DNA of 18,304 bases from a virus (Duplodnaviria; Heunggongvirae; Uroviricota; Caudoviricetes). Below the pieces are notes generated by a model. It ran no database searches. It was not told the DNA's origin and was given only the letters and a program-made list of their open reading frames with translations. The stretch is from the IMG/VR virus record IMGVR_UViG_2529292908_000003; one strand, written 5' to 3'. Shown here piece by piece: positions 10,018-18,304 of the stretch (positions are counted from its first letter, which is position 1; every line of letters begins with the position of its first letter). The translations under genes were made by a program, and so were the position numbers.

Positions 10018-12444
10018 ATGTCCAAAAATGAACGAATGGTGGGCATCAGCCGCAGAACACTCGTTAAATCTACCGCGATAGGTTCTCTGGCGCTGGCTGC
10101 AGGCGGTTTTTCTTTGCCGTTTACCCTGCGCAATGCAGCAGCAGCGGTACAACAGGCCCGCGAAAAAGTGGTCTGGGGTGCCTGTTCCGTCAACTGTGGT
10201 AGCCGCTGTGCACTTCGTCTACATGTTAAAGATAATGAAGTGACCTGGGTGGAAACTGACAATACCGGCAGCGATGAGTACGGCAACCATCAGGTACGCG
10301 CCTGTTTGCGCGGTCGCTCCATCCGCCGGCGTATTAATCATCCCGATCGCTTAAATTACCCAATGAAACGCGTGGGCAAACGCGGCGAAGGCAAATTCGA
10401 ACGGATTAGCTGGGATGAAGCCCTGGATACTATCGCCAGTAGCCTGAAGAAAACCGTCGAACAATATGGCAATGAGGCTGTATATATTCAGTACTCTTCG
10501 GGGATCGTTGGCGGCAATATGACCCGCTCTTCGCCATCAGCCTCGGCGGTCAAACGCCTGATGAACTGCTACGGCGGTTCACTCAACCAGTATGGCTCCT
10601 ACAGCACTGCGCAAATTTCCTGTGCCATGCCCTACACCTACGGCAGTAATGATGGCAACAGCACCACGGATATTGAAAACAGCAAGCTGGTCGTGATGTT
10701 TGGTAACAACCCGGCAGAAACCCGCATGAGCGGTGGTGGCATCACTTATCTTCTTGAAAAAGCGCGCGAGAAATCGAACGCCAAAATGATTGTTATCGAT
10801 CCGCGATATACCGATACGGCTGCCGGTCGTGAAGACGAATGGCTCCCTATTCGCCCGGGCACCGATGCCGCGCTGGTTGCGGGTATTGCCTGGGTATTGA
10901 TTAACGAAAATCTCGTTGATCAACCTTTTCTCGATAAATACTGCGTCGGCTATGACGAAAAAACCTTACCCGCAGATGCACCCAAAAATGGTCACTATAA
11001 AGCCTATATTCTTGGTGAAGGTGACGATAAAACAGCGAAAACGCCGCAGTGGGCTTCGCAAATTACCGGTATCCCGGAGGACCGTATCATCAAACTGGCG
11101 CGTGAAATTGGCACAGCAAAACCCGCTTATATCTGCCAGGGCTGGGGGCCACAACGCCAGGCAAACGGCGAACTGACTGCACGCGCTATTGCTATGTTAC
11201 CTATTTTGACGGGCAATGTCGGCATCAGCGGCGGAAATAGTGGCGCGCGTGAATCGACCTATACCATTACCATAGAACGCCTGCCGGTGCTGGATAATCC
11301 GGTCAAAACGTCAATCTCCTGCTTCAGCTGGACAGATGCTATCGATCATGGTCCGCAAATGACGGCAATCCGCGACGGCGTCCGCGGCAAAGATAAACTG
11401 GATGTGCCCATTAAGTTCATCTGGAACTACGCGGGAAATACCCTCGTTAATCAGCATTCTGACATCAACAAAACGCATGAAATTCTGCAGGACGAATCGA
11501 AATGCGAAATGATTGTGGTCATCGAAAACTTTATGACCTCATCGGCAAAATATGCCGACATTCTGCTGCCAGACCTGATGACCGTTGAGCAGGAAGATAT
11601 TATTCCTAACGACTACGCCGGTAACATGGGATATCTCATTTTCCTCCAGCCTGTCACCAGCGAAAAATTCGAACGCAAACCGATTTACTGGATCCTGAGT
11701 GAAGTCGCGAAACGTCTTGGACCTGACGTCTATCAAAAGTTCACAGAAGGTCGCACGCAGGAACAATGGTTACAACATCTGTACGCCAAAATGCTTGCCA
11801 AAGATCCGGCGTTACCGTCTTACGACGAACTGAAAAAAATGGGTATCTATAAGCGTAAAGATCCCAATGGCCATTTTGTCGCCTACAAAGCATTTCGTGA
11901 CGACCCCGAGGCAAATCCACTTAAAACGCCTTCCGGTAAGATTGAAATTTATTCCAGCAGGCTGGCGGAAATTGCCCGTACCTGGGAACTGGAAAAAGAT
12001 GAAGTGATAAGCCCATTGCCAGTTTATGCCTCAACCTTTGAAGGCTGGAACTCCCCTGAACGTAGAACCTTCCCACTGCAACTGTTTGGTTTCCATTACA
12101 AATCCCGTACTCACTCGACCTACGGCAATATTGATCTCCTGAAGGCTGCCTGCCGTCAGGAGGTGTGGATCAACCCTATAGATGCGCAGAAACGTGGGAT
12201 TGCCAACGGCGATATGGTGCGGGTGTTTAACCATCGTGGCGAAGTTCGGCTACCAGCCAAAGTAACACCACGTATTCTCCCTGGAGTTAGCGCTATGGGC
12301 CAGGGAGCCTGGCACGAGGCCAATATGTCTGGCGATAAAATCGACCATGGCGGCTGTGTGAATACGCTAACCACTCTGCGCCCTTCACCACTGGCGAAGG
12401 GAAACCCGCAGCACACTAATCTGGTCGAGATCGAAAAAATATAA
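10018..12444 (+). CDS. ynfE: Tat-exported molybdopterin oxidoreductase catalytic subunit YnfE (DMSO reductase family, putative selenate reductase)
   Basis: 808-aa ORF; twin-arginine signal ISRRTLVKSTAIGSLALAAGG; N-terminal Cys cluster CSVNCGSRC; GGGAG SD. Confidence 0.93.
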   Translation: MSKNERMVGISRRTLVKSTAIGSLALAAGGFSLPFTLRNAAAAVQQAREKVVWGACSVNCGSRCALRLHVKDNEVTWVETDNTGSDEYGNHQVRACLRGRSIRRRINHPDRLNYPMKRVGKRGEGKFERISWDEALDTIASSLKKTVEQYGNEAVYIQYSSGIVGGNMTRSSPSASAVKRLMNCYGGSLNQYGSYSTAQISCAMPYTYGSNDGNSTTDIENSKLVVMFGNNPAETRMSGGGITYLLEKAREKSNAKMIVIDPRYTDTAAGREDEWLPIRPGTDAALVAGIAWVLINENLVDQPFLDKYCVGYDEKTLPADAPKNGHYKAYILGEGDDKTAKTPQWASQITGIPEDRIIKLAREIGTAKPAYICQGWGPQRQANGELTARAIAMLPILTGNVGISGGNSGARESTYTITIERLPVLDNPVKTSISCFSWTDAIDHGPQMTAIRDGVRGKDKLDVPIKFIWNYAGNTLVNQHSDINKTHEILQDESKCEMIVVIENFMTSSAKYADILLPDLMTVEQEDIIPNDYAGNMGYLIFLQPVTSEKFERKPIYWILSEVAKRLGPDVYQKFTEGRTQEQWLQHLYAKMLAKDPALPSYDELKKMGIYKRKDPNGHFVAYKAFRDDPEANPLKTPSGKIEIYSSRLAEIARTWELEKDEVISPLPVYASTFEGWNSPERRTFPLQLFGFHYKSRTHSTYGNIDLLKAACRQEVWINPIDAQKRGIANGDMVRVFNHRGEVRLPAKVTPRILPGVSAMGQGAWHEANMSGDKIDHGGCVNTLTTLRPSPLAKGNPQHTNLVEIEKI

Positions 12445-12504
12445 CCCACGACAACCATAAATTCTGGCATGACATTTTGTTTGAAAAGCAATAAGTGAGT
12501 AATG

Positions 12505-14928
12505 ATGAAAATCCATACCACAGAGGCGCTCATGAAGGCTGAAATCAGCCGTAGAAGTCTGATGAAAACCTCCGCACTTGGCAGTCTTGCGCTGGCAAGC
12601 AGTGCTTTCACTCTGCCATTTTCCCAAATGGTCCGGGCGGCAGAGGCTCCGGTAGAAGAGAAAGCGGTCTGGAGTTCCTGCACCGTTAACTGCGGGAGCC
12701 GCTGTCTGTTACGTTTGCATGTGAAAGATGACACCGTGTACTGGGTGGAGTCTGATACGACAGGTGACGACGTCTACGGTAATCATCAGGTTCGAGCGTG
12801 TTTACGCGGGCGCTCTATCCGCCGACGGATGAATCATCCTGATAGGTTGAAATATCCCATGAAGCGCGTCGGCAAGCGCGGTGAAGGTAAATTTGAACGG
12901 ATAAGTTGGGACGAAGCCCTGGATACCATCAGTGATAATCTTCGGCGGATCCTGAAAGATTACGGCAATGAGGCTGTACATGTCCTGTACGGAACAGGCG
13001 TAGATGGCGGAAACATCACCAACTCAAACGTCCCGTACCGTCTGATGAACTCTTGCGGTGGTTTTCTCAGTCGCTATGGCAGCTACAGTACCGCACAGAT
13101 CAGTGCCGCAATGAGTTATATGTTCGGTGCCAATGATGGCAACAGCCCGGATGATATCGCCAATACGAAACTGGTCGTTATGTTCGGAAATAACCCGGCA
13201 GAAACGCGGATGAGCGGCGGTGGTGTCACTTACTACGTCGAGCAAGCCCGCGAACGTTCAAACGCACGCATGATCGTCATCGATCCACGTTATAACGACA
13301 CTGCTGCCGGGCGTGAAGATGAATGGCTGCCCATTCGCCCTGGCACCGATGGCGCACTGGCCTGTGCGATTGCCTGGGTACTGATTACTGAAAACATGGT
13401 CGATCAGCCATTTCTCGACAAATATTGTGTTGGTTACGATGAAAAAACGCTGCCCGCCAACGCACCACGTAACGCGCATTATAAAGCCTATATTCTGGGC
13501 GAAGGGCCTGACGGCATAGCTAAAACGCCGGAATGGGCAGCAAAAATCACCAGCATCCCGGCAGAAAAAATTATCCAGTTGGCACGAGAGATCGGTTCAG
13601 CAAAACCTGCTTATATTTGTCAGGGTTGGGGGCCACAACGACATTCCAACGGCGAGCAAACATCCCGCGCTATTGCCATGCTTTCCGTTCTCACCGGCAA
13701 CGTCGGCATAAACGGCGGCAACTCAGGCGTACGCGAAGGTAGCTGGGATCTGGGGGTAGAATGGTTCCCGATGCTCGAGAATCCTGTTAAAACGCAGATT
13801 TCCGTCTTTACATGGACAGATGCCATCGACCATGGTACGGAAATGACCGCGACCCGTGATGGTGTTCGTGGAAAAGAAAAACTGGATGTCCCCATCAAGT
13901 TTTTATGGTGCTACGCCAGTAACACATTGATCAATCAACATGGCGACATCAATCACACCCATGAGGTGCTTCAGGATGACAGCAAGTGCGAGATGATTGT
14001 TGGCATTGACCACTTCATGACGGCCTCGGCTAAGTATTGCGATATCCTGTTGCCCGACCTGATGCCAACAGAGCAAGAAGACCTTATCTCTCATGAATCT
14101 GCAGGGAATATGGGCTATGTGATCCTCGCCCAACCCGCAACCTCAGCAAAATTTGAACGCAAACCCATCTACTGGATGCTGAGTGAAGTCGCCAAACGCT
14201 TAGGACCAGACGTTTATCAAACCTTTACTGAAGGTCGCAGTCAGCATGAATGGATCAAATATCTCCATGCGAAAACGAAGGAACGTAACCCTGAGATGCC
14301 CGACTACGAGGAGATGAAAACGACCGGGATCTTTAAGAAAAAATGCCCGGAAGAACACTACGTCGCTTTCCGCGCATTCCGTGAAGATCCACAGGCAAAC
14401 CCGTTGAAAACACCTTCGGGGAAAATCGAAATTTATTCTGAACGACTGGCGAAGATTGCAGATACCTGGGAATTGAAAAAAGATGAAATTATTCATCCCC
14501 TTCCTGCGTATACCCCAGGTTTTGATGGCTGGGACGATCCCCTGCGGAAAACCTATCCACTGCAGTTAACGGGCTTCCATTACAAAGCGCGTACCCACTC
14601 CAGCTACGGCAATATTGATGTGTTACAGCAGGCCTGCCCACAAGAGGTGTGGATCAACCCCATTGATGCTCAGGCACGCGGTATCCGTCATGGCGATACC
14701 GTGCGGGTATTTAACAATAATGGAGAAATGCTGATTGCCGCAAAAGTGACTCCGCGTATTCTGCCTGGCGTTACCGCCATCGGGCAAGGTGCGTGGCTTA
14801 AAGCGGATATGTTTGGTGACCGGGTCGATCACGGCGGCAGTATCAATATTCTGACCTCTCACCGCCCTTCACCGCTGGCAAAGGGAAACCCGTCGCACAG
14901 CAATCTTGTCCAGATCGAAAAGGTTTAA
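12505..14928 (+). CDS. ynfF: Tat-exported molybdopterin oxidoreductase YnfF, paralog of YnfE
   Basis: 807 aa from the second ATG (SD AGTGAG 5 nt upstream); Tat motif ISRRSLMK; high similarity to YnfE throughout. Confidence 0.93.
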   Translation: MKIHTTEALMKAEISRRSLMKTSALGSLALASSAFTLPFSQMVRAAEAPVEEKAVWSSCTVNCGSRCLLRLHVKDDTVYWVESDTTGDDVYGNHQVRACLRGRSIRRRMNHPDRLKYPMKRVGKRGEGKFERISWDEALDTISDNLRRILKDYGNEAVHVLYGTGVDGGNITNSNVPYRLMNSCGGFLSRYGSYSTAQISAAMSYMFGANDGNSPDDIANTKLVVMFGNNPAETRMSGGGVTYYVEQARERSNARMIVIDPRYNDTAAGREDEWLPIRPGTDGALACAIAWVLITENMVDQPFLDKYCVGYDEKTLPANAPRNAHYKAYILGEGPDGIAKTPEWAAKITSIPAEKIIQLAREIGSAKPAYICQGWGPQRHSNGEQTSRAIAMLSVLTGNVGINGGNSGVREGSWDLGVEWFPMLENPVKTQISVFTWTDAIDHGTEMTATRDGVRGKEKLDVPIKFLWCYASNTLINQHGDINHTHEVLQDDSKCEMIVGIDHFMTASAKYCDILLPDLMPTEQEDLISHESAGNMGYVILAQPATSAKFERKPIYWMLSEVAKRLGPDVYQTFTEGRSQHEWIKYLHAKTKERNPEMPDYEEMKTTGIFKKKCPEEHYVAFRAFREDPQANPLKTPSGKIEIYSERLAKIADTWELKKDEIIHPLPAYTPGFDGWDDPLRKTYPLQLTGFHYKARTHSSYGNIDVLQQACPQEVWINPIDAQARGIRHGDTVRVFNNNGEMLIAAKVTPRILPGVTAIGQGAWLKADMFGDRVDHGGSINILTSHRPSPLAKGNPSHSNLVQIEKV

Positions 14929-14938
14929 GGAGTAGCCC

Positions 14939-15051
14939 ATGACCACACAATATGGATTTTTATCGATTCCAGCCGCTGTACTGGCTGTAAAACCTGCGAA
15001 CTGGCGTGCAAAGATTTTAAAGTTGGTTACGTATCGTTTAAAATCAATTAG
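14939..15051 (+). pseudogene. ynfG: ynfG remnant (4Fe-4S ferredoxin subunit): frameshift in a T5 run at 14957-14961, then truncation about 26 codons in
   Basis: ATG 14939 gives MTTQYGF; the ferredoxin motif IDSSRCTGCKTCELACKD lies in the +1 frame with no start codon, ends at TAG 15049-15051, and is followed by unrelated DNA. YnfG is about 205 aa in K-12 (recalled). Confidence 0.7.
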
Positions 15052-15095
15052 ATAGCCCGTCATTTCTGCGCTCACACGTCCCAACATTGAAAAAC

Positions 15096-15129
15096 ATGCA
15101 AAGCTTTGTAAGCCGATGCAAAGCTTTGT
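15096..15129. promoter_or_regulatory. Two copies of a 14-bp repeat ATGCAAAGCTTTGT, each containing the perfect 10-bp palindrome CAAAGCTTTG, spaced 20 bp centre to centre; operator-like
   Basis: Palindromes at 15099-15108 and 15119-15128, read directly; two-helical-turn spacing is typical of a dimeric repressor operator pair. Confidence 0.4.
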
Positions 15130-15215
15130 GTGTCTCACTTTTGTCCCAATACCAATCCGAATCCACCCTTTGTCATCATTGAGAAATGGCAAGGAAGAAA
15201 AGGATGTTACTGCAC

Positions 15216-15248
15216 GATTTGACAAATCCGCCAGAGCTATCGCATACT
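15216..15248 (+). promoter_or_regulatory. Promoter-like module A: palindrome GATTTGACAAATC overlapping a consensus -35 TTGACA (15219-15224), 18-bp spacer, -10-like CATACT
   Basis: 16-bp GATTTGACAAATCCGC is identical to 16628-16643; consensus -35; weak -10. Confidence 0.4.
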
Positions 15249-15266
15249 GACCGCACTACAACGTCA

Positions 15267-15302
15267 GCGGTCAACCGCACCCGATAGCTTTGCGGCTTTT
15301 TT
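15267..15302 (+). terminator. Attenuator/terminator-like element A: GCGG-tcaa-CCGC-(12 nt)-GCGG-c-UUUUUU
   Basis: Three short complementary segments allowing alternative pairings, followed by T6; same layout as 16692-16726. Confidence 0.4.
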
Positions 15303-15407
15303 ATGCCTGTTTACAGGTATCGCCATATCAATGGCGGGTCGAGAGAGCCTAATACAATACCCTTTCGGGAAATACGCTCCGCCGTCTGACGCGGTAGTTG
15401 AAGCCCG

Positions 15408-15416
15408 CCCCCCCCC
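15408..15416. repeat. Homopolymeric C9 tract about 40 bp upstream of the antirepressor-like gene A start
   Basis: Nine consecutive C at 15408-15416 (preceded by GCCCG), within the 5' leader of gene A. Confidence 0.9.
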
Positions 15417-15458
15417 ACTAAGGTGGCAGTCAATACTAAAACGTCAGGAGTCATAATT

Positions 15459-15743
15459 ATGACTAATCAACTCATTCCCGTTTTCGATGGAACCATCAAC
15501 AACGAACCAGTTTTACTTTGCAATGCTCGCAATCTGCACGCTTTTCTTGGTATTGGTAAAATGTTTGCTCACTGGATCAAGGACAGGCTGGGTGAATATG
15601 GATTCGTTGAAAATCAAGATTTTGTGATTGCTTGCCAAAATTGGCAAGCAAAAGGTAGAGGCGGTCACAACCGCAAGGAATACCACCTCACCCTCGACAC
15701 AGCCAAAGAGCTTGCGATGGTTGACGACTGCGTCCAATACTGA
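15459..15743 (+). CDS. Antirepressor-like protein, AntA-type N-terminal domain only (truncated paralog of the gene at 15993)
   Basis: AGGAG SD 8 nt before ATG 15459; product MTNQLIPVFDGTINNEPVLLCNARNLHAFLG...HLTLDTAKELAMV is about 60 percent identical to the N-terminus of the next gene, then diverges and stops; 44 bp (15681-15724) are identical to 16209-16252. Confidence 0.6.
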   Translation: MTNQLIPVFDGTINNEPVLLCNARNLHAFLGIGKMFAHWIKDRLGEYGFVENQDFVIACQNWQAKGRGGHNRKEYHLTLDTAKELAMVDDCVQY

Positions 15744-15790
15744 CTATACTCCGCGCCGAGGCCTCGAAAACCTCCCAAAAGCGGATTAAA

Positions 15791-15816
15791 CCAACCCCGT
15801 CAGTGTTGGATTTTTT
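15791..15816 (+). terminator. Putative intrinsic terminator after gene A (stem CCAAC/GTTGG, loop CCCGTCAGT, then A-UUUUUU)
   Basis: Hairpin plus T6, 48 bp after the gene A stop; loop sequence CCCGTCAGT recurs at 16704-16712. Confidence 0.45.
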
Positions 15817-15992
15817 ATGCCTGTTATTCAGTGATAGCACAGTGTGCGGTCACATCCCCGATCAATGTCGGGAGGGCGACGAATACAACACCCGCAAGGG
15901 GAATAAGTCCGCGGTATCTTTTGGGCCGTTTCGAGCCTCCCGGCACCACATCTTGTGGTGGCATTTCTCGAAAAAAGCCAAAGGAGGTCATC

Positions 15993-16622
15993 ATGACCAC
16001 TCAACTCATCCCTGTGTTTGAAGGTACAATCTCAAATGAACCTACGCTTCTGGTGAACGCGCGTGATTTGCATGGATTTTTAGAGGTAGGTAAAGATTTT
16101 TCTAACTGGATACGGGCCAGGCTAAACGAGTATGGATTCGTAGAAAATTTAGACTACATTCTATTTTCGCCAAATTTGGCGAAAACTCCAGGCCGCCGCC
16201 GCAAGGATTACCACCTCACCCTCGACACAGCCAAAGAGCTTGCGATGGTTGAACGTAACGAAAAAGGCCGCCAGATACGCCGCTACTTCATCGAGTGCGA
16301 AAAGAAACTTCGCAACATTCAGCCAGTACAAGCAGAACCACAGCCGCAATTCACAGCCGAGGAAATCATCCTCCTTTGCTACATGCAGCTCTGGATGGAA
16401 AAAGCCCAGGACATCAGCAAACACCTGTATCCCATTATGAAAGAGCTGAACTCCTCATACACGAACAAGCTGTATGACATTGCGTTTGAGACCATCTACA
16501 TGGTGACGAAGAACAGAGACGCGCTACTGAGGGAGGTAACACGTCTCGACATGTCAAGTTCCGTTATCCAGCGGGCCATGCCAATGCTGAAAAGCCTGCG
16601 GGCAAGACAATTCGAGTTTTAA
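15993..16622 (+). CDS. Phage antirepressor-like protein (AntA-type N-terminal domain plus a C-terminal domain shared with the gene at 16877)
   Basis: AGGAGG SD 5 nt before ATG 15993; MTTQLIPVFEGTISNEPTLLVNARDLHGFLEVGKDFSNWIRARLNEYGFVE...HLTLDTAKELAMVERNEKGRQIRRYFIE, and a C-terminus PQFTAEEIILLCYMQLWMEKAQ...LRARQFEF shared with the next gene. The track's 54-codon upstream extension has no RBS. Confidence 0.75.
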   Translation: MTTQLIPVFEGTISNEPTLLVNARDLHGFLEVGKDFSNWIRARLNEYGFVENLDYILFSPNLAKTPGRRRKDYHLTLDTAKELAMVERNEKGRQIRRYFIECEKKLRNIQPVQAEPQPQFTAEEIILLCYMQLWMEKAQDISKHLYPIMKELNSSYTNKLYDIAFETIYMVTKNRDALLREVTRLDMSSSVIQRAMPMLKSLRARQFEF

Positions 16623-16627
16623 GGCCA

Positions 16628-16660
16628 GATTTGACAAATCCGCATTAACGGGGATATATT
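16628..16660 (+). promoter_or_regulatory. Promoter-like module C: palindrome GATTTGACAAATC with -35 TTGACA (16631-16636), 18-bp spacer, -10 TATATT (16655-16660)
   Basis: Consensus -35, 5 of 6 -10; 16-bp identity with module A; begins 6 bp after the gene B stop. Confidence 0.5.
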
Positions 16661-16691
16661 CCGCTCCATGGTGCTGAACACACCTTCGAAA

Positions 16692-16726
16692 GCGGAAACC
16701 GCGCCCGTCAGTCATGCGGATTTTTT
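16692..16726 (+). terminator. Attenuator/terminator-like element C: GCGG-aaa-CCGC-(13 nt, containing CCCGTCAGT)-GCGG-a-UUUUUU
   Basis: Same three-segment layout as 15267-15302 despite different intervening sequence; T6 at 16721-16726. Confidence 0.4.
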
Positions 16727-16876
16727 ATGTCCATTTTTCAGATATGGTCGGGTAGCGCGTATACCGAAAAACAGCCGTAAGGCTAAGGATGCGGGCCGAA
16801 CTTTCGACGGTGTTCAAGTACCCGACCGCCCTGCTGAACACGGGGTGATCTGAACGAATCGAAAGGACATAAAACT

Positions 16877-17509
16877 ATGAGCACTCAACTTGTATTCCAC
16901 AATGTTCAATTCCAGACCGTTCAACGAGATGGTCTACTGTGGTTGTCTGCCCCCCAAATAGCCAGCGCGTTACAATATGCAGATCAAAGCTCGGTAACAC
17001 GCATCTATGCCCGTCACGCAGATGAATTCACAAACGGTATGACAGCCTCGGTCAAATTGACCGATCCTAAAGGGGACAAGCAAGAGACTCGCATCTTCTC
17101 ATTACGCGGCGCTCACCTAATAGCGATGTTTGCTCGAACTCCAATAGCAAAAGAGTTTCGTCGCTGGGTATTGGATATTCTGGACCGTGAAGCTGAAAAA
17201 AGCGCTATACCGCCACAACCTCATATTCAGCCTCAATTCACAGCAGAAGACATCATCCTGCTCTGCTACGTTCAACTCTGGATGGAAAAAGCACAACAAC
17301 TCAGTAAACAGCTATACCCCGTCATGAGAGAACTGAACTCTGATTACTATGGAAAGCTGTTTGATCTGGCCTACGAAACTCGTCATATAACCAACCGGAC
17401 TCGCGACACATTGCTCCGCGAAGCAGCAAAACTTGATCCCGCCAACTATACGGTGCACAGGGCCAGAAGTATGCTGGCGCAACTAAGAGCAAGACAATTT
17501 GAATTCTGA
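16877..17509 (+). CDS. Phage antirepressor-like protein (Bro-N-type N-terminal domain plus the C-terminal domain shared with the gene at 15993)
   Basis: AAGGA SD; N-terminus MSTQLVFHNVQFQTVQRDGLLWLSAPQIASALQY (Bro-N-like); C-terminus PQFTAEDIILLCYVQLWMEKAQ...LRARQFEF about 65 percent identical to the preceding gene. Confidence 0.75.
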   Translation: MSTQLVFHNVQFQTVQRDGLLWLSAPQIASALQYADQSSVTRIYARHADEFTNGMTASVKLTDPKGDKQETRIFSLRGAHLIAMFARTPIAKEFRRWVLDILDREAEKSAIPPQPHIQPQFTAEDIILLCYVQLWMEKAQQLSKQLYPVMRELNSDYYGKLFDLAYETRHITNRTRDTLLREAAKLDPANYTVHRARSMLAQLRARQFEF

Positions 17510-17514
17510 AACCA

Positions 17515-17536
17515 AAGGAGCTTCGGCTCCTTTTTT
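17515..17536 (+). terminator. Rho-independent terminator after the antirepressor array: 7-bp stem AAGGAGC/GCTCCTT, UUCG tetraloop, T-run
   Basis: Perfect stem with UUCG loop and T6, read directly, 6 nt after the stop at 17509. Confidence 0.75.
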
Positions 17537-17556
17537 CATGCCTGAAGGAAAGGAAA

Positions 17557-17778
17557 ATGGCAGATATCATCGACAATGCCGCTGAAATCGAAGAATTGCA
17601 GCGCAATCTCTCCCTGCAAAAATACAAATCCGATAGTAATGCCCCATCTGCTACTCATTGTTGCGAGTGTGGCGATCCGATAGATGAGCGGCGACGCCTG
17701 GCTGTTCGTGGATGCCGAGCTTGCGCCAGTTGCCAGCAGGATATTGAACTTATCAACAAACAGAGAGGTGTGAAGTGA
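17557..17778 (+). CDS. TraR/DksA-family C4 zinc-finger protein (phage TraR-like transcription modulator)
   Basis: AAGGAAAGGA SD; 73 aa with CxxC-x17-CxxC (CECGDPIDERRRLAVRGCRACASCQ), typical of TraR-like proteins of conjugative elements and lambdoid phages. Confidence 0.75.
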   Translation: MADIIDNAAEIEELQRNLSLQKYKSDSNAPSATHCCECGDPIDERRRLAVRGCRACASCQQDIELINKQRGVK

Positions 17779-18092
17779 ACATCAACACCACGATAACGAT
17801 CGATACAGCCCTGAACACCGGCCTGGCGCTCCTTGGTTATTTCTACATCATGTTCTGCAGCGGACGATGGCTGTCACTGTTGTTCATGAAAAAATGGAAT
17901 AAACGCCGTAAGCAGGAGCAACGCCAGAAGGCAATGGATGCATTTTTCGAAGCCTTCGGGATTGACAGCATGGAACCAGGGGATCCAGCTCGCGCAATCA
18001 GCAGAGGGGGCGTAGTAATCCTTGTATATCGGAGTGAAGAGAAAAATGACGATCACAAAACAACGTGTAGAAAAAATCATATATCGCCATGA
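17775..18092 (+). CDS. Hypothetical small protein with one predicted TM segment; GTG start overlaps the TraR-like stop (GTGA)
   Basis: ORF start and stop overlap suggests translational coupling; hydrophobic stretch GLALLGYFYIMFCSGRWLSLLF followed by a basic region; no family recognised. Confidence 0.35.
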   Translation: MNINTTITIDTALNTGLALLGYFYIMFCSGRWLSLLFMKKWNKRRKQEQRQKAMDAFFEAFGIDSMEPGDPARAISRGGVVILVYRSEEKNDDHKTTCRKNHISP

Positions 18093-18304
18093 AATGGGAC
18101 TGAACAGCGATGTCACTGCCGAAGAGGTTTATGACCTGGCTGTACTGGCGCTGAATTTATCAAATATCGCAAACCTGAAGCGATACGAGCTTGATATGGA
18201 TTGTTGTGACTCGTTCGGTCAGGATTGTGGCGCTGACATGACTGAAGATTCTGATGGCGATTATGTTCTGTTTGATGACGTGGTTAAGTTGTTTGAGTTT
18301 GATA
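18046..18304 (+). CDS. Hypothetical acidic protein, 5' part; ORF runs off the window end
   Basis: ATG 18046 with GGAG 11 nt upstream; 86 codons without a stop (MTITKQRVEKIIYRHEMGLNSDVTAEEVYDLAV...DGDYVLFDDVVKLFEF); absent from the ORF track because it has no stop. Confidence 0.45.
   Translation, partial: MTITKQRVEKIIYRHEMGLNSDVTAEEVYDLAVLALNLSNIANLKRYELDMDCCDSFGQDCGADMTEDSDGDYVLFDDVVKLFEFD

Follow-up and report, generated by a model that had tools for sequence, protein, structure and literature searches.

Three tandem antirepressor-like genes in an Escherichia coli prophage, each behind a candidate c4-like RNA module of the sRNA-Xcc1 family

The window analysed here is the whole 18,304-nucleotide (nt) stretch of IMG/VR virus record IMGVR_UViG_2529292908_000003, of which the part 14900-18304 is shared at 100% identity with strain FORC_043 and four other genomes. 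Its host is E. coli, and its prophage is 933W-like (Sepvirinae) and inserted in ynfG. We focus on three consecutive antirepressor-like open reading frames (ORFs) on the same strand, genes A, B and C, and on the RNA modules in front of them. The original prediction had described these ORFs as a tandem mosaic array in which N-terminal domains (N-domains) are swapped on a common C-terminal domain (C-domain), and Pfam bears this out for ORFs at the following coordinates.

15459-15743, plus strand: gene A, 94 amino acids (aa), an ORF with an AntA domain only
15993-16622, plus strand: gene B, 209 aa, AntA + P22_AR_C
16877-17509, plus strand: gene C, 210 aa, Bro-N + P22_AR_C
16338-16619 in B and 17225-17506 in C, plus strand: shared P22_AR_C-type C-domain

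Hidden Markov model searches find antirepressor-related domains in all three proteins. Gene A matches AntA (88.5 bits, cut-off 27) and nothing else, P22_AR_C being absent; gene B matches AntA (93.6 bits, same cut-off) and P22_AR_C (29.4 bits, cut-off 22.4), and gene C matches Bro-N (PF02498; 44.0 bits, cut-off 25.6) and P22_AR_C (30.8 bits, cut-off 22.4). A and B are thereby members of the AntA/AntB family (PF08346) and C of the BRO family. With respect to P22-type antirepressors, B and C have the C-domain, and P22_AR_N is absent from all three proteins, whose N-domains are AntA (A, B) and Bro-N (C). A tentative KilAC/ANT-like assignment of the C-domain does not hold, since Pfam gives P22_AR_C alone and no ANT or KilAC match in A, B or C at E ≤ 0.1. 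As had been described, the C-domains of B and C are related (58/94 aa, 62%; 173/282 nt, 61%) and their N-domains are not (24/110 identical), and gene A resembles the N-domain of B (58/89 aa, 65%). Gene B is a full-length match to PHROG 377 ("anti-repressor Ant"), the AntA-only form of 94-95 aa represented by gene A is a PHROG family of its own, and the Prokaryotic Genome Annotation Pipeline (PGAP) flags gene A as incomplete. A Protein Data Bank sequence search with B and C gave no match at E ≤ 1.

The main organising feature of the region, overlooked in the original prediction, is that every gene has its own promoter, sRNA-Xcc1/c4-like RNA and duplicated target sites. Read from the sequence, each gene appears to be a complete regulatory cassette, consisting of a promoter, a leader with two sites (a1, b1), a hairpin with a U-run, an RNA of the Rfam family sRNA-Xcc1, and the two sites repeated (a2, b2) at the Shine-Dalgarno (SD) sequence. 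The parts of the RNA complementary to these sites are denoted a' (in the single-stranded segment J3/1) and b' (in the P3 loop).

15219-15248, plus strand: cassette A promoter-like site, TTGACA-18-CATACT (consensus match)
15254-15267, plus strand: cassette A upstream sites, a1 CACUAC (15254-15259) and b1 CGUCAG (15262-15267)
15267-15302, plus strand: cassette A GCGG/CCGC/GCGG hairpins and U-run, leaky terminator-like, homologous to the phage P1 immI leader
15333-15417, plus strand: cassette A sRNA-Xcc1-type RNA, b' CUGACG (15386-15391, P3 loop), a' GUAGU (15394-15398, J3/1)
15433-15450, plus strand: cassette A downstream sites, a2 AUACUA and b2 CGUCAG, into SD GGAG
15721-15750, plus strand: cassette B promoter-like site, TTGACG-18-TATACT (consensus match), its -35 straddling the truncation junction of gene A
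15763-15781, plus strand: cassette B upstream sites, a1 CUCGAAA and b1 CCAAAAG
15791-15816, plus strand: cassette B hairpin CCAAC..GUUGG and U-run
15867-15952, plus strand: cassette B sRNA-Xcc1-type RNA, b' CUUUUGG (15918-15924), a' UUUCGAG (15929-15935)
15967-15987, plus strand: cassette B downstream sites, a2 CUCGAAA and b2 CCAAAGG, overlapping SD GGAGG
16631-16660, plus strand: cassette C promoter-like site, TTGACA-18-TATATT (consensus match)
16675-16692, plus strand: cassette C upstream sites, a1 UGAAC and b1 UCGAAAG
16692-16726, plus strand: cassette C GCGG/CCGC/GCGG hairpins and U-run
16746-16835, plus strand: cassette C sRNA-Xcc1-type RNA, b' CUUUCGA (16801-16807), a' GUUCA (16812-16816)
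16851-16867, plus strand: cassette C downstream sites, a2 UGAAC and b2 UCGAAAG, into SD AGGA

Against the Rfam sRNA-Xcc1 model (RF02221; gathering score, 53 bits), the RNAs of B and C score 73.4 and 67.7 bits, and that of A falls just under the gathering score (49.9 bits, E = 3.8e-7). A consensus scan places sigma70-like promoters at equivalent positions in all three cassettes, and the leader hairpin shows a compensatory change, with CCGC..GCGG in A and C versus CCAAC..GUUGG in B. A -10-like "TATG/CAATG" directly before the RNA was considered as a promoter of the RNA itself and rejected: covariation places the whole P1 stem inside the RNA, so that we now take these letters for a c4-like processing context, U(-1)|G(+1). 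No LexA box (CTG-N10-CAG) was seen by eye in the three promoter regions, for which no formal scan was made. A separate observation is that the motif TTTTTT(A/C)ATG(C/T)C(T/C)(G/A) follows every U-run (15297-15311, 15811-15825 and 16721-16735) and recurs behind gene C (17531-17545), and that phage P1 has UAUUUUUGUGUCCGU at the equivalent place.

In every cassette, the P3 loop and J3/1 are complementary both to the SD-side sites a2/b2 and to the promoter-side sites a1/b1, and the a/b code differs between cassettes (ACUAC / CGUCAG in A, CUCGAAA / CCAAA(A)G in B, UGAAC / UCGAAAG in C). The cognate duplexes with a2b2 reach -14.5 (A), -19.8 (B) and -14.5 (C) kcal/mol and those with a1b1 -23.9, -24.2 and -21.0 kcal/mol, while the cassette A RNA reaches -12.2 and -13.9 kcal/mol with the non-cognate upstream sites. 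When all RNAs are compared with all targets, the strongest duplex for an RNA or for a target is almost always the cognate one. The a1/b1 duplexes (-21 to -24) are stronger than the a2/b2 duplexes (-14.5 to -19.8), which would favour the upstream copy as a decoy when both are present.

The pairing is not limited to this array. We scanned IMG/VR with the RNA core pattern AATACAANACCCNNNNGGGNAA, which occurs in at least 120 stretches of DNA; among the matches listed, 85 instances have a leader of 30-62 nt from the end of the P1 stem to the start codon, and 74 non-redundant instances were used in pairing tests. The distance from RNA to start codon clusters at 40-54 nt in the 85 instances. The P3 region pairs with the last 30 nt of its own leader at -14.26 kcal/mol, compared to -9.64 ± 0.29 when RNAs and leaders are permuted, and none of 5000 permutations reaches the cognate value (n = 74). 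The P3 loop alone (-9.55 versus -4.58 ± 0.22) and J3/1 against the a2 zone (-6.36 versus -4.25 ± 0.21) follow the same pattern, and there are 69 distinct loops among the 74 instances. The upstream target copy is also general (longest common substring, 7.3 versus 5.5 ± 0.11; duplex energy, -19.5 versus -16.0 ± 0.28), and in the viral-contig homologues good promoter matches are found either 84-99 or 112-130 nt ahead of the RNA. At the RNA ends we observe (A/U)AU|G across the 5' end in 49/74 instances and RCC(A/C) after the P1 stem in 61/74.

Among the matches listed, 71 of 81 distinct downstream proteins have one of six N-terminal Pfam domains (P22_AR_N 14, Bro-N 14, Phage_pRha 13, KilA-N 12, AntA 10 and ORF6N 8); P22_AR_C is present in 21/81, and 10/81 have no Pfam match. 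In eight related arrays there is one sRNA-Xcc1 copy per antirepressor-like gene, with one A-type copy (locus L003) below the gathering score. Two further arrangements were seen: at L111 (816-1109), a single Rha-type gene is preceded by two sRNA-Xcc1 copies that are separated by 209 nt without an ORF, and a family of 83-85-aa proteins (MNPLCTVLPDLP...) is also found behind Xcc1-type RNAs, with a leader of about 72 nt by a rough measure (L008, L013, L036, L044 and L094).

The layout of the cassettes is that of the immI locus of phages P1 and P7, in which the c4 RNA blocks ant expression by pairing around the ribosome-binding site (RBS) and so underlies P1/P7 heteroimmunity (PMC12197685, PMC8546580), with specificity set by a few loop nucleotides (PMC12197685). 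As reference we used the annotated phage P1 record (locus L129), with the following features.

224: end of the -10 of promoter P1c4
256-262: a1
270-277: b1
344-420: c4 RNA
424-430: a2
453-460: b2
471: ATG of icd

In phage P1, a2 (TTGACAG) is the complement of c4 J3/1 (CUGUCAA) and b2 (GTTAGTGA) that of the P3 loop (UCACUAAC), and the c4 RNA is 120 nt away from the -10 on one side and 50 nt away from the ATG on the other. The Rfam C4 model (RF01695) describes an 87-nt three-way junction with a tetraloop hairpin, a large-loop hairpin and a single-stranded J3/1, with AU|GG before it and ACC after it. P1/P7 immI and the window therefore share the order of promoter, a1 b1, hairpin/U-run, three-way-junction RNA, a2 b2, RBS and antirepressor gene or operon; they share the placement of a' on the J3/1 strand and b' in the P3 loop, and the flanks (U|G before, ACC or RCC(A/C) after); and phage P1 immI matches the sRNA-Xcc1 modules in spacing (about 120 nt from -10 to RNA, about 50 nt from RNA to ATG). 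The hairpin/U-run segment of the leader can even be aligned in sequence between phage P1 and the window cassettes. Two defining parts of a c4-type module are found here, namely a three-way-junction RNA whose J3/1 and P3 loop are complementary to two sites at the downstream RBS, and duplicate target sites between promoter and RNA. There are also clear differences. The P1 stem has 9 bp in the window RNAs versus about 17 bp in c4; P2 is extended in sRNA-Xcc1 and has a conserved AAUACAA/GAA internal loop; a2 and b2 are 3-6 nt apart in the window versus 22 nt in phage P1; and the window has the module tandemly triplicated with three specificities. The P1/P7 immI operon consists of the c4 antisense RNA, icd and ant1/2.

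On this basis we consider that the region is probably a tandem array of three immI-type (P1 c4-like) antirepressor modules at the attP-proximal end of a 933W-like prophage. In the mechanism that we propose, a constitutive-looking sigma70 promoter would give a leader of about 50-60 nt with a1 and b1, followed by the weak hairpin/U-run. The sRNA-Xcc1 three-way-junction RNA of about 87 nt would be excised from the longer transcript, RNase P being the probable enzyme, as Hartmann and colleagues are said to have described for c4 in 1995; the U(-1), G(+1) and RCCA-like determinants flanking the RNA are hints in that direction. The excised RNA would pair through a' and b' with a2/b2, in cis or in trans, and block translation of its own gene, and the a1/b1 copy, in a short terminated RNA or in cis, would compete for the same loops and lift the block. 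Since the three a/b sequences differ, each cassette would be regulated largely independently. The B and C proteins would most likely bind and inactivate a CI-type repressor, speeding induction. RNA processing, translational repression and antirepressor activity are all predictions made from sequence.

The proposed relief by a1/b1 is drawn by analogy with IsrK acting on anrP in Gifsy-1, where the read-through mRNA for the antirepressor-like AnrP is translationally silent and IsrK activates anrP translation 139-fold in trans (PMC4825925). The Gifsy-1 IsrK-orf45-anrP locus resembles the window leader in having a promoter-proximal short RNA that ends at a leaky terminator, but its published model has no c4/Xcc1-type RNA and works through a 45-codon ORF and alternative long-range helices (PMC4825925). 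The Rfam isrK model covers the a1b1 and terminator segment of phage P1 (35 bits).

Several observations weigh against an immI-type array. There is no icd-like ORF between RNA and gene in the window, unlike in phage P1, so that the RBS of an icd translationally coupled to ant is absent as a target, and b2 adjoins the SD of A, B and C themselves. Neither Rfam C4 (RF01695, clan CL00128) nor c4-a1b1 (RF03163) nor isrK matches anywhere in 14900-18304 at E ≤ 5, although the phage P1 positive control gave 68.8 and 51.0 bits, and the sRNA-Xcc1 model does not match P1 immI. Because neither covariance model detects the other locus, we speak of a c4-type module and not of a member of Rfam C4, and the kinship consists of the architecture and one alignable leader segment. 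Orthogonality is incomplete, since the B RNA pairs with the a2b2 target of C (-15.3 kcal/mol; 15909-15937 with 16842-16879) about as well as, or slightly better than, the RNA of C itself (-14.5); the a-site of B (UCGAAA) resembles the b-site of C (UCGAAAG), which makes cross-regulation possible. In single-sequence folding, the minimum free energy of the leaders is not significantly below that of shuffled sequences (z = -0.8 to -1.8). The terminator scan called none of the weak hairpin/U-run elements, and the promoters are consensus matches alone. Finally, gene A may be non-functional, and orthology of the Ant protein of phage Phi24B to B or C could not be established.

A tentative extension, which we hold to be possible, is that the array acts mainly as a multi-specificity RNA immunity locus, in which the three c4-like RNAs would silence in trans the matching antirepressor genes of superinfecting or co-resident phages and so keep these genes from inducing the prophage. 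This would explain that the promoter, decoy sites, RNA and target of cassette A are intact despite its truncated protein, and that full-length antirepressor genes with exactly the A-type target circulate in other phages. If it were true, no other programmable riboregulator of antirepressor-type genes would be as widespread as sRNA-Xcc1, given its 69 loops in 74 instances and six N-domain families.

The antirepressor role of the proteins is the point at issue in a second reading, which we consider rather unlikely: the proteins could be DNA-binding effectors (KilA-, Bro- or SymE-like) that are toxic or act on the host and may be anti-defence, with the RNA acting as an antitoxin-like silencer in the lysogen. 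In integron cassettes of Xanthomonas, symE has an RNA of this family in front of it (bioRxiv 10.1101/2025.06.18.660453); such RNAs are also found ahead of KilA-N, Rha and ORF6N proteins and of small proteins without a Pfam domain, and the antirepressor role of AntA + P22_AR_C and Bro-N + P22_AR_C proteins is so far a prediction from their domains. However, P22_AR_C is the C-domain of the archetypal P22 antirepressor, P1 Ant, under a c4-type RNA, is an antirepressor (P1 annotation), and ant of Phi24B, at the same genome position, promotes induction (PMC3064807). In the Phi24B ant knockout, late-promoter activity on induction falls to about 30%, with late-gene expression delayed or reduced (PMC3064807).

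In Stx (Shiga toxin) phages, Phi24B ant and 933W L0142 occupy the position of the window array, as the first gene across attP from int, with the TraR/DksA zinc-finger and ea22-like genes next. L0142 has its C-domain in common with gene C (50% over residues 74-210 of C) and its own sRNA-Xcc1 copy. Phi24B and 933W carry one cassette, in contrast to the three of the window prophage. The C-terminus of Phi24B Ant is 82% identical to P22 Ant (PMC3064807), whereas B and C match P22_AR_C weakly (E ~1e-7), and the RNA module is not described in the Phi24B ant work (PMC3064807). P22 immI itself is like the window in its P22_AR_C domain and in the antisense-RNA control of antirepressor translation (PMC12197685). 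It differs in that sar is a cis-antisense transcript of the opposite strand, in an Ant with P22_AR_N and in having no three-way-junction RNA.

P22 Ant is regulated by Mnt, Arc and the sar antisense RNA. In N15, AntA-family genes under a c4-type RNA are antirepressors, and its cA RNA with antA/antB is reportedly of the same type as P1/P7 immI, as Ravin and colleagues are said to have found in 1999. Domain shuffling in phage regulators of the KilA-N, Bro-N and ORF6N types was reportedly treated by Iyer, Koonin and Aravind in 2002; the window resembles these in that interchangeable N-terminal DNA-binding-type domains occur on various C-domains. What is unlike the known shuffling is that exchanges are visible here between near-identical strains, that the crossover zones can be mapped, and that one RNA module serves all N-domain families.

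Control purely in cis is an unlikely alternative in our estimate. The sRNA-Xcc1 elements would then be riboswitch- or thermosensor-like leaders in which the three-way junction senses a ligand or a protein, with the P3-loop/SD pseudoknot as expression platform and no processed trans RNA. The strongly conserved P2 internal loop (AAUACAA / GAA) and GNRA-type tetraloop, together with the fixed spacing to the start codon, fit such leaders, and the SD-proximal pairing works in cis as well. Nevertheless, no ligand is known, the second target copy lies upstream in a layout collinear with that of trans-acting P1 c4, and the U(-1)/G(+1) and RCC(A/C) flanks resemble a processing signal. Moreover, a discrete RNA accumulates in two organisms. 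In Xanthomonas, sRNA-Xcc1 is a discrete 88-nt RNA (PMC2996969). In E. coli EDL933, an enterohaemorrhagic strain, a minus-strand sRNA-Xcc1 of 89 nt is abundant, its read counts being near those of CsrB and its ribosome coverage very low (PMC5331693). Phage 933W has an sRNA-Xcc1 copy upstream of its ant gene L0142, about 450 bp from attR, with length and strand matching the EDL933 RNA. The published EDL933 coordinate (1392052; PMC5331693) is not at the ant leader in NZ_CP008957, probably because it refers to another genome version, and the link is therefore made indirectly, via 933W.

The original prediction had noted a 44-bp exact identity between 15681-15724 and 16209-16252 in gene B and had taken it to mark a recent recombination junction. 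The identity is real and exceeds that of the flank (52/53 over 15672-15724 versus 136/213, 64%, upstream; Fisher P = 4e-8), and it lies in the following feature.

15671-15724 (= 16199-16252 in B), plus strand: conserved AntA linker block, a crossover site

Within the block, residues identical between A and B use the same codon in 15/15 cases, compared to 16/38 upstream (P = 9e-5). Across the eight AntA-type alleles that we compared, the mean pairwise nucleotide identity of the block is 0.90-0.94 versus 0.61-0.75 elsewhere. The block is thus the best-conserved DNA in all eight alleles, so its identity is not peculiar to the A/B pair, and it behaves as a general recombination linker. That part of the claim which saw a site of recombination stands, since a chimera has its crossover inside the block. 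The comparison with the same locus in related genomes covered strains with a prophage at the same ynfG site and viral contigs. In strain 23CRST047 (L002) there is one full-length AntA gene whose 5' part matches the A region (85%) and which matches B from 16199 on (99.4%); this gene is an A-N::B-C chimera with the crossover in the linker block. L003 and L005 have gene A and a B::C hybrid with the crossover at 16341-16450 / 17234-17340, inside a second crossover zone in the C-domain (16341-16453 / 17228-17340), L004 has all three genes with C frameshifted, and viral contigs have full-length A alleles (209-211 aa) with a B-type or C-type C-domain behind the same A-type leader. The A::B and B::C hybrids of other strains indicate recombination of the array at its repeats. 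Whereas the A and B blocks of the window are identical, four positions distinguish the A-type block of L005 from the B block of the window, which makes local homogenisation or allele replacement plausible. The original prediction had also seen in the diversified modules a sign of ongoing selection, for example for different repressors or defence proteins as targets, which we treat as a conjecture.

The homology of gene A to full-length genes stops at 15724/15725, at the junction ...ATGGTTGA|CGACTGCGTCC... (protein end MVDDCVQY), which is identical in L088, POCJ13, L004, L005 and L150. The junction (...ATGGTTGA|CGACTGCG...) joins the ORF to the -35 (TTGACG) of the cassette B promoter, and the 3' end of gene A overlaps the -35 and the spacer of that promoter. 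We read the end as a deletion junction, and the deletion may have arisen via TTGA(C) microhomology; no undeleted version of the cassette B promoter was found among the loci examined. The junction is not recent as had been proposed: it is shared by alleles that are merely 69-79% identical to A elsewhere, and together with the separate PHROG family this indicates that the truncation is old and widely inherited. The array would thus have evolved by homologous recombination at the conserved AntA linker and within the C-domain, and by one old deletion, which reduced gene A to an AntA-only ORF joined to the promoter of the next cassette.

One could also read the array as neutral debris of unequal recombination, with A a dead pseudogene, B and C redundant and the strain variation a sign of decay, in line with the PGAP flag on A, the frameshifted copies in some strains and a copy number between one and three. 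We regard this as improbable, as the ORF and the full RNA module of A are intact in several divergent alleles with the same junction, the 94-95-aa form is a recurrent PHROG family, and matched, distinct specificities are kept in all three cassettes. Least credible of all is the proposal from Xanthomonas and Xylella that sRNA-Xcc1 RNAs are ordinary trans small RNAs for host or virulence genes with ant-like neighbours by chance, for which there are published target predictions and HrpG/HrpX-dependent expression (PMC2996969; PMC12189769 citing Chen et al. 2011), since 71/81 downstream genes among the matches listed fall in six antirepressor-type families at a fixed spacing of 40-54 nt and the loops covary with the adjacent SD region, a pairing signal that argues strongly against it.

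The Xanthomonas campestris sRNA-Xcc1 is of the same covariance family as the window RNAs, for which Rfam lists no clan, but has been described as integron-borne, trans-acting, virulence-linked and located upstream of symE. An integron-like cassette array was considered for the window as well and rejected, on account of its own promoter-like sites, the crossovers in homologous coding segments and the phage int/attP neighbour, with no dedicated attC search being made. It is already known that antirepressor genes occur at this position, that antirepressors come under antisense control and that domains are shuffled in Bro/KilA-type proteins. A link of sRNA-Xcc1 to c4 or to antirepressor control was not found in the searchable literature, beyond which papers may say more; the sole mention that we found is an APSE phage copy upstream of an ORF6N protein. 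If the c4-type reading is right, sRNA-Xcc1 would change from a virulence-linked trans RNA of Xanthomonas and Xylella to a c4-type regulator of phages and mobile elements, base-paired to the RBS of the next gene and placed ahead of at least six antirepressor-type protein families. In Stx phages the module fronts ant, which affects the speed of prophage induction and hence toxin production, making the RNA a plausible control point. Domain and regulator shuffling in progress is clearly seen in the tandem array, with its three specificities, and in the natural hybrids A::B and B::C, and the loop/target code is apparently simple enough for experimental reprogramming.

With respect to the genomic setting, the array adjoins host genes on one side and a conserved phage block on the other.

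10018-12444: ynfE
12502-14928: ynfF
14938-15021, plus strand: truncated ynfG stub, 28 codons (4Fe-4S subunit; RefSeq annotation of FORC_043)
17514-17536, plus strand: terminator-like hairpin AAAGGAGC-UUCG-GCUCCUUU and U-run behind gene C, read from the sequence

The host/prophage junction follows directly after the ynfG stub, and the DNA from there on is prophage. By breaking ynfG after 28 codons, the prophage divides the ynfEFGH-dmsD selenate/tellurate reductase operon of this strain. Sepvirinae Stx phages, among them POCJ13, 75/02 Stx, the Stx1 and Stx2 phages of O157 and 933W, have the same block, in the order antirepressor-like gene(s), TraR/DksA zinc-finger gene, DUF4752 gene and ea22-like genes, followed by the gene of a giant LPD38 protein on the opposite strand. 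In the circular Stx1 phage AP005153, xis, int, attP, ant and TraR follow each other on one strand, which makes the array the first element across attP from int; in the integrated prophage it is the far end, adjoining host DNA.

The array is directly followed by a gene for a TraR/DksA C4 zinc-finger protein (17557-17778), which overlaps a DUF4752 gene (17775-18092) by 4 nt, and Stx phages have this pair conserved behind ant. Between the prophage end and the cassette A promoter, at 15094-15133, there are two copies of the palindromic ATGCAAAGCTTTGT, 6 nt apart; the region has a terminator-like score on the plus strand and a spurious mir-19 match, and the repeats may protect the array against read-through from ynfEF, or a protein may bind there. 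A hok/sok-type toxin-antitoxin module is present a few kb downstream of the ant region in an Stx1 phage (L007:6830-7004) and in the 933W prophage of EDL933 (L128:2444-2599).

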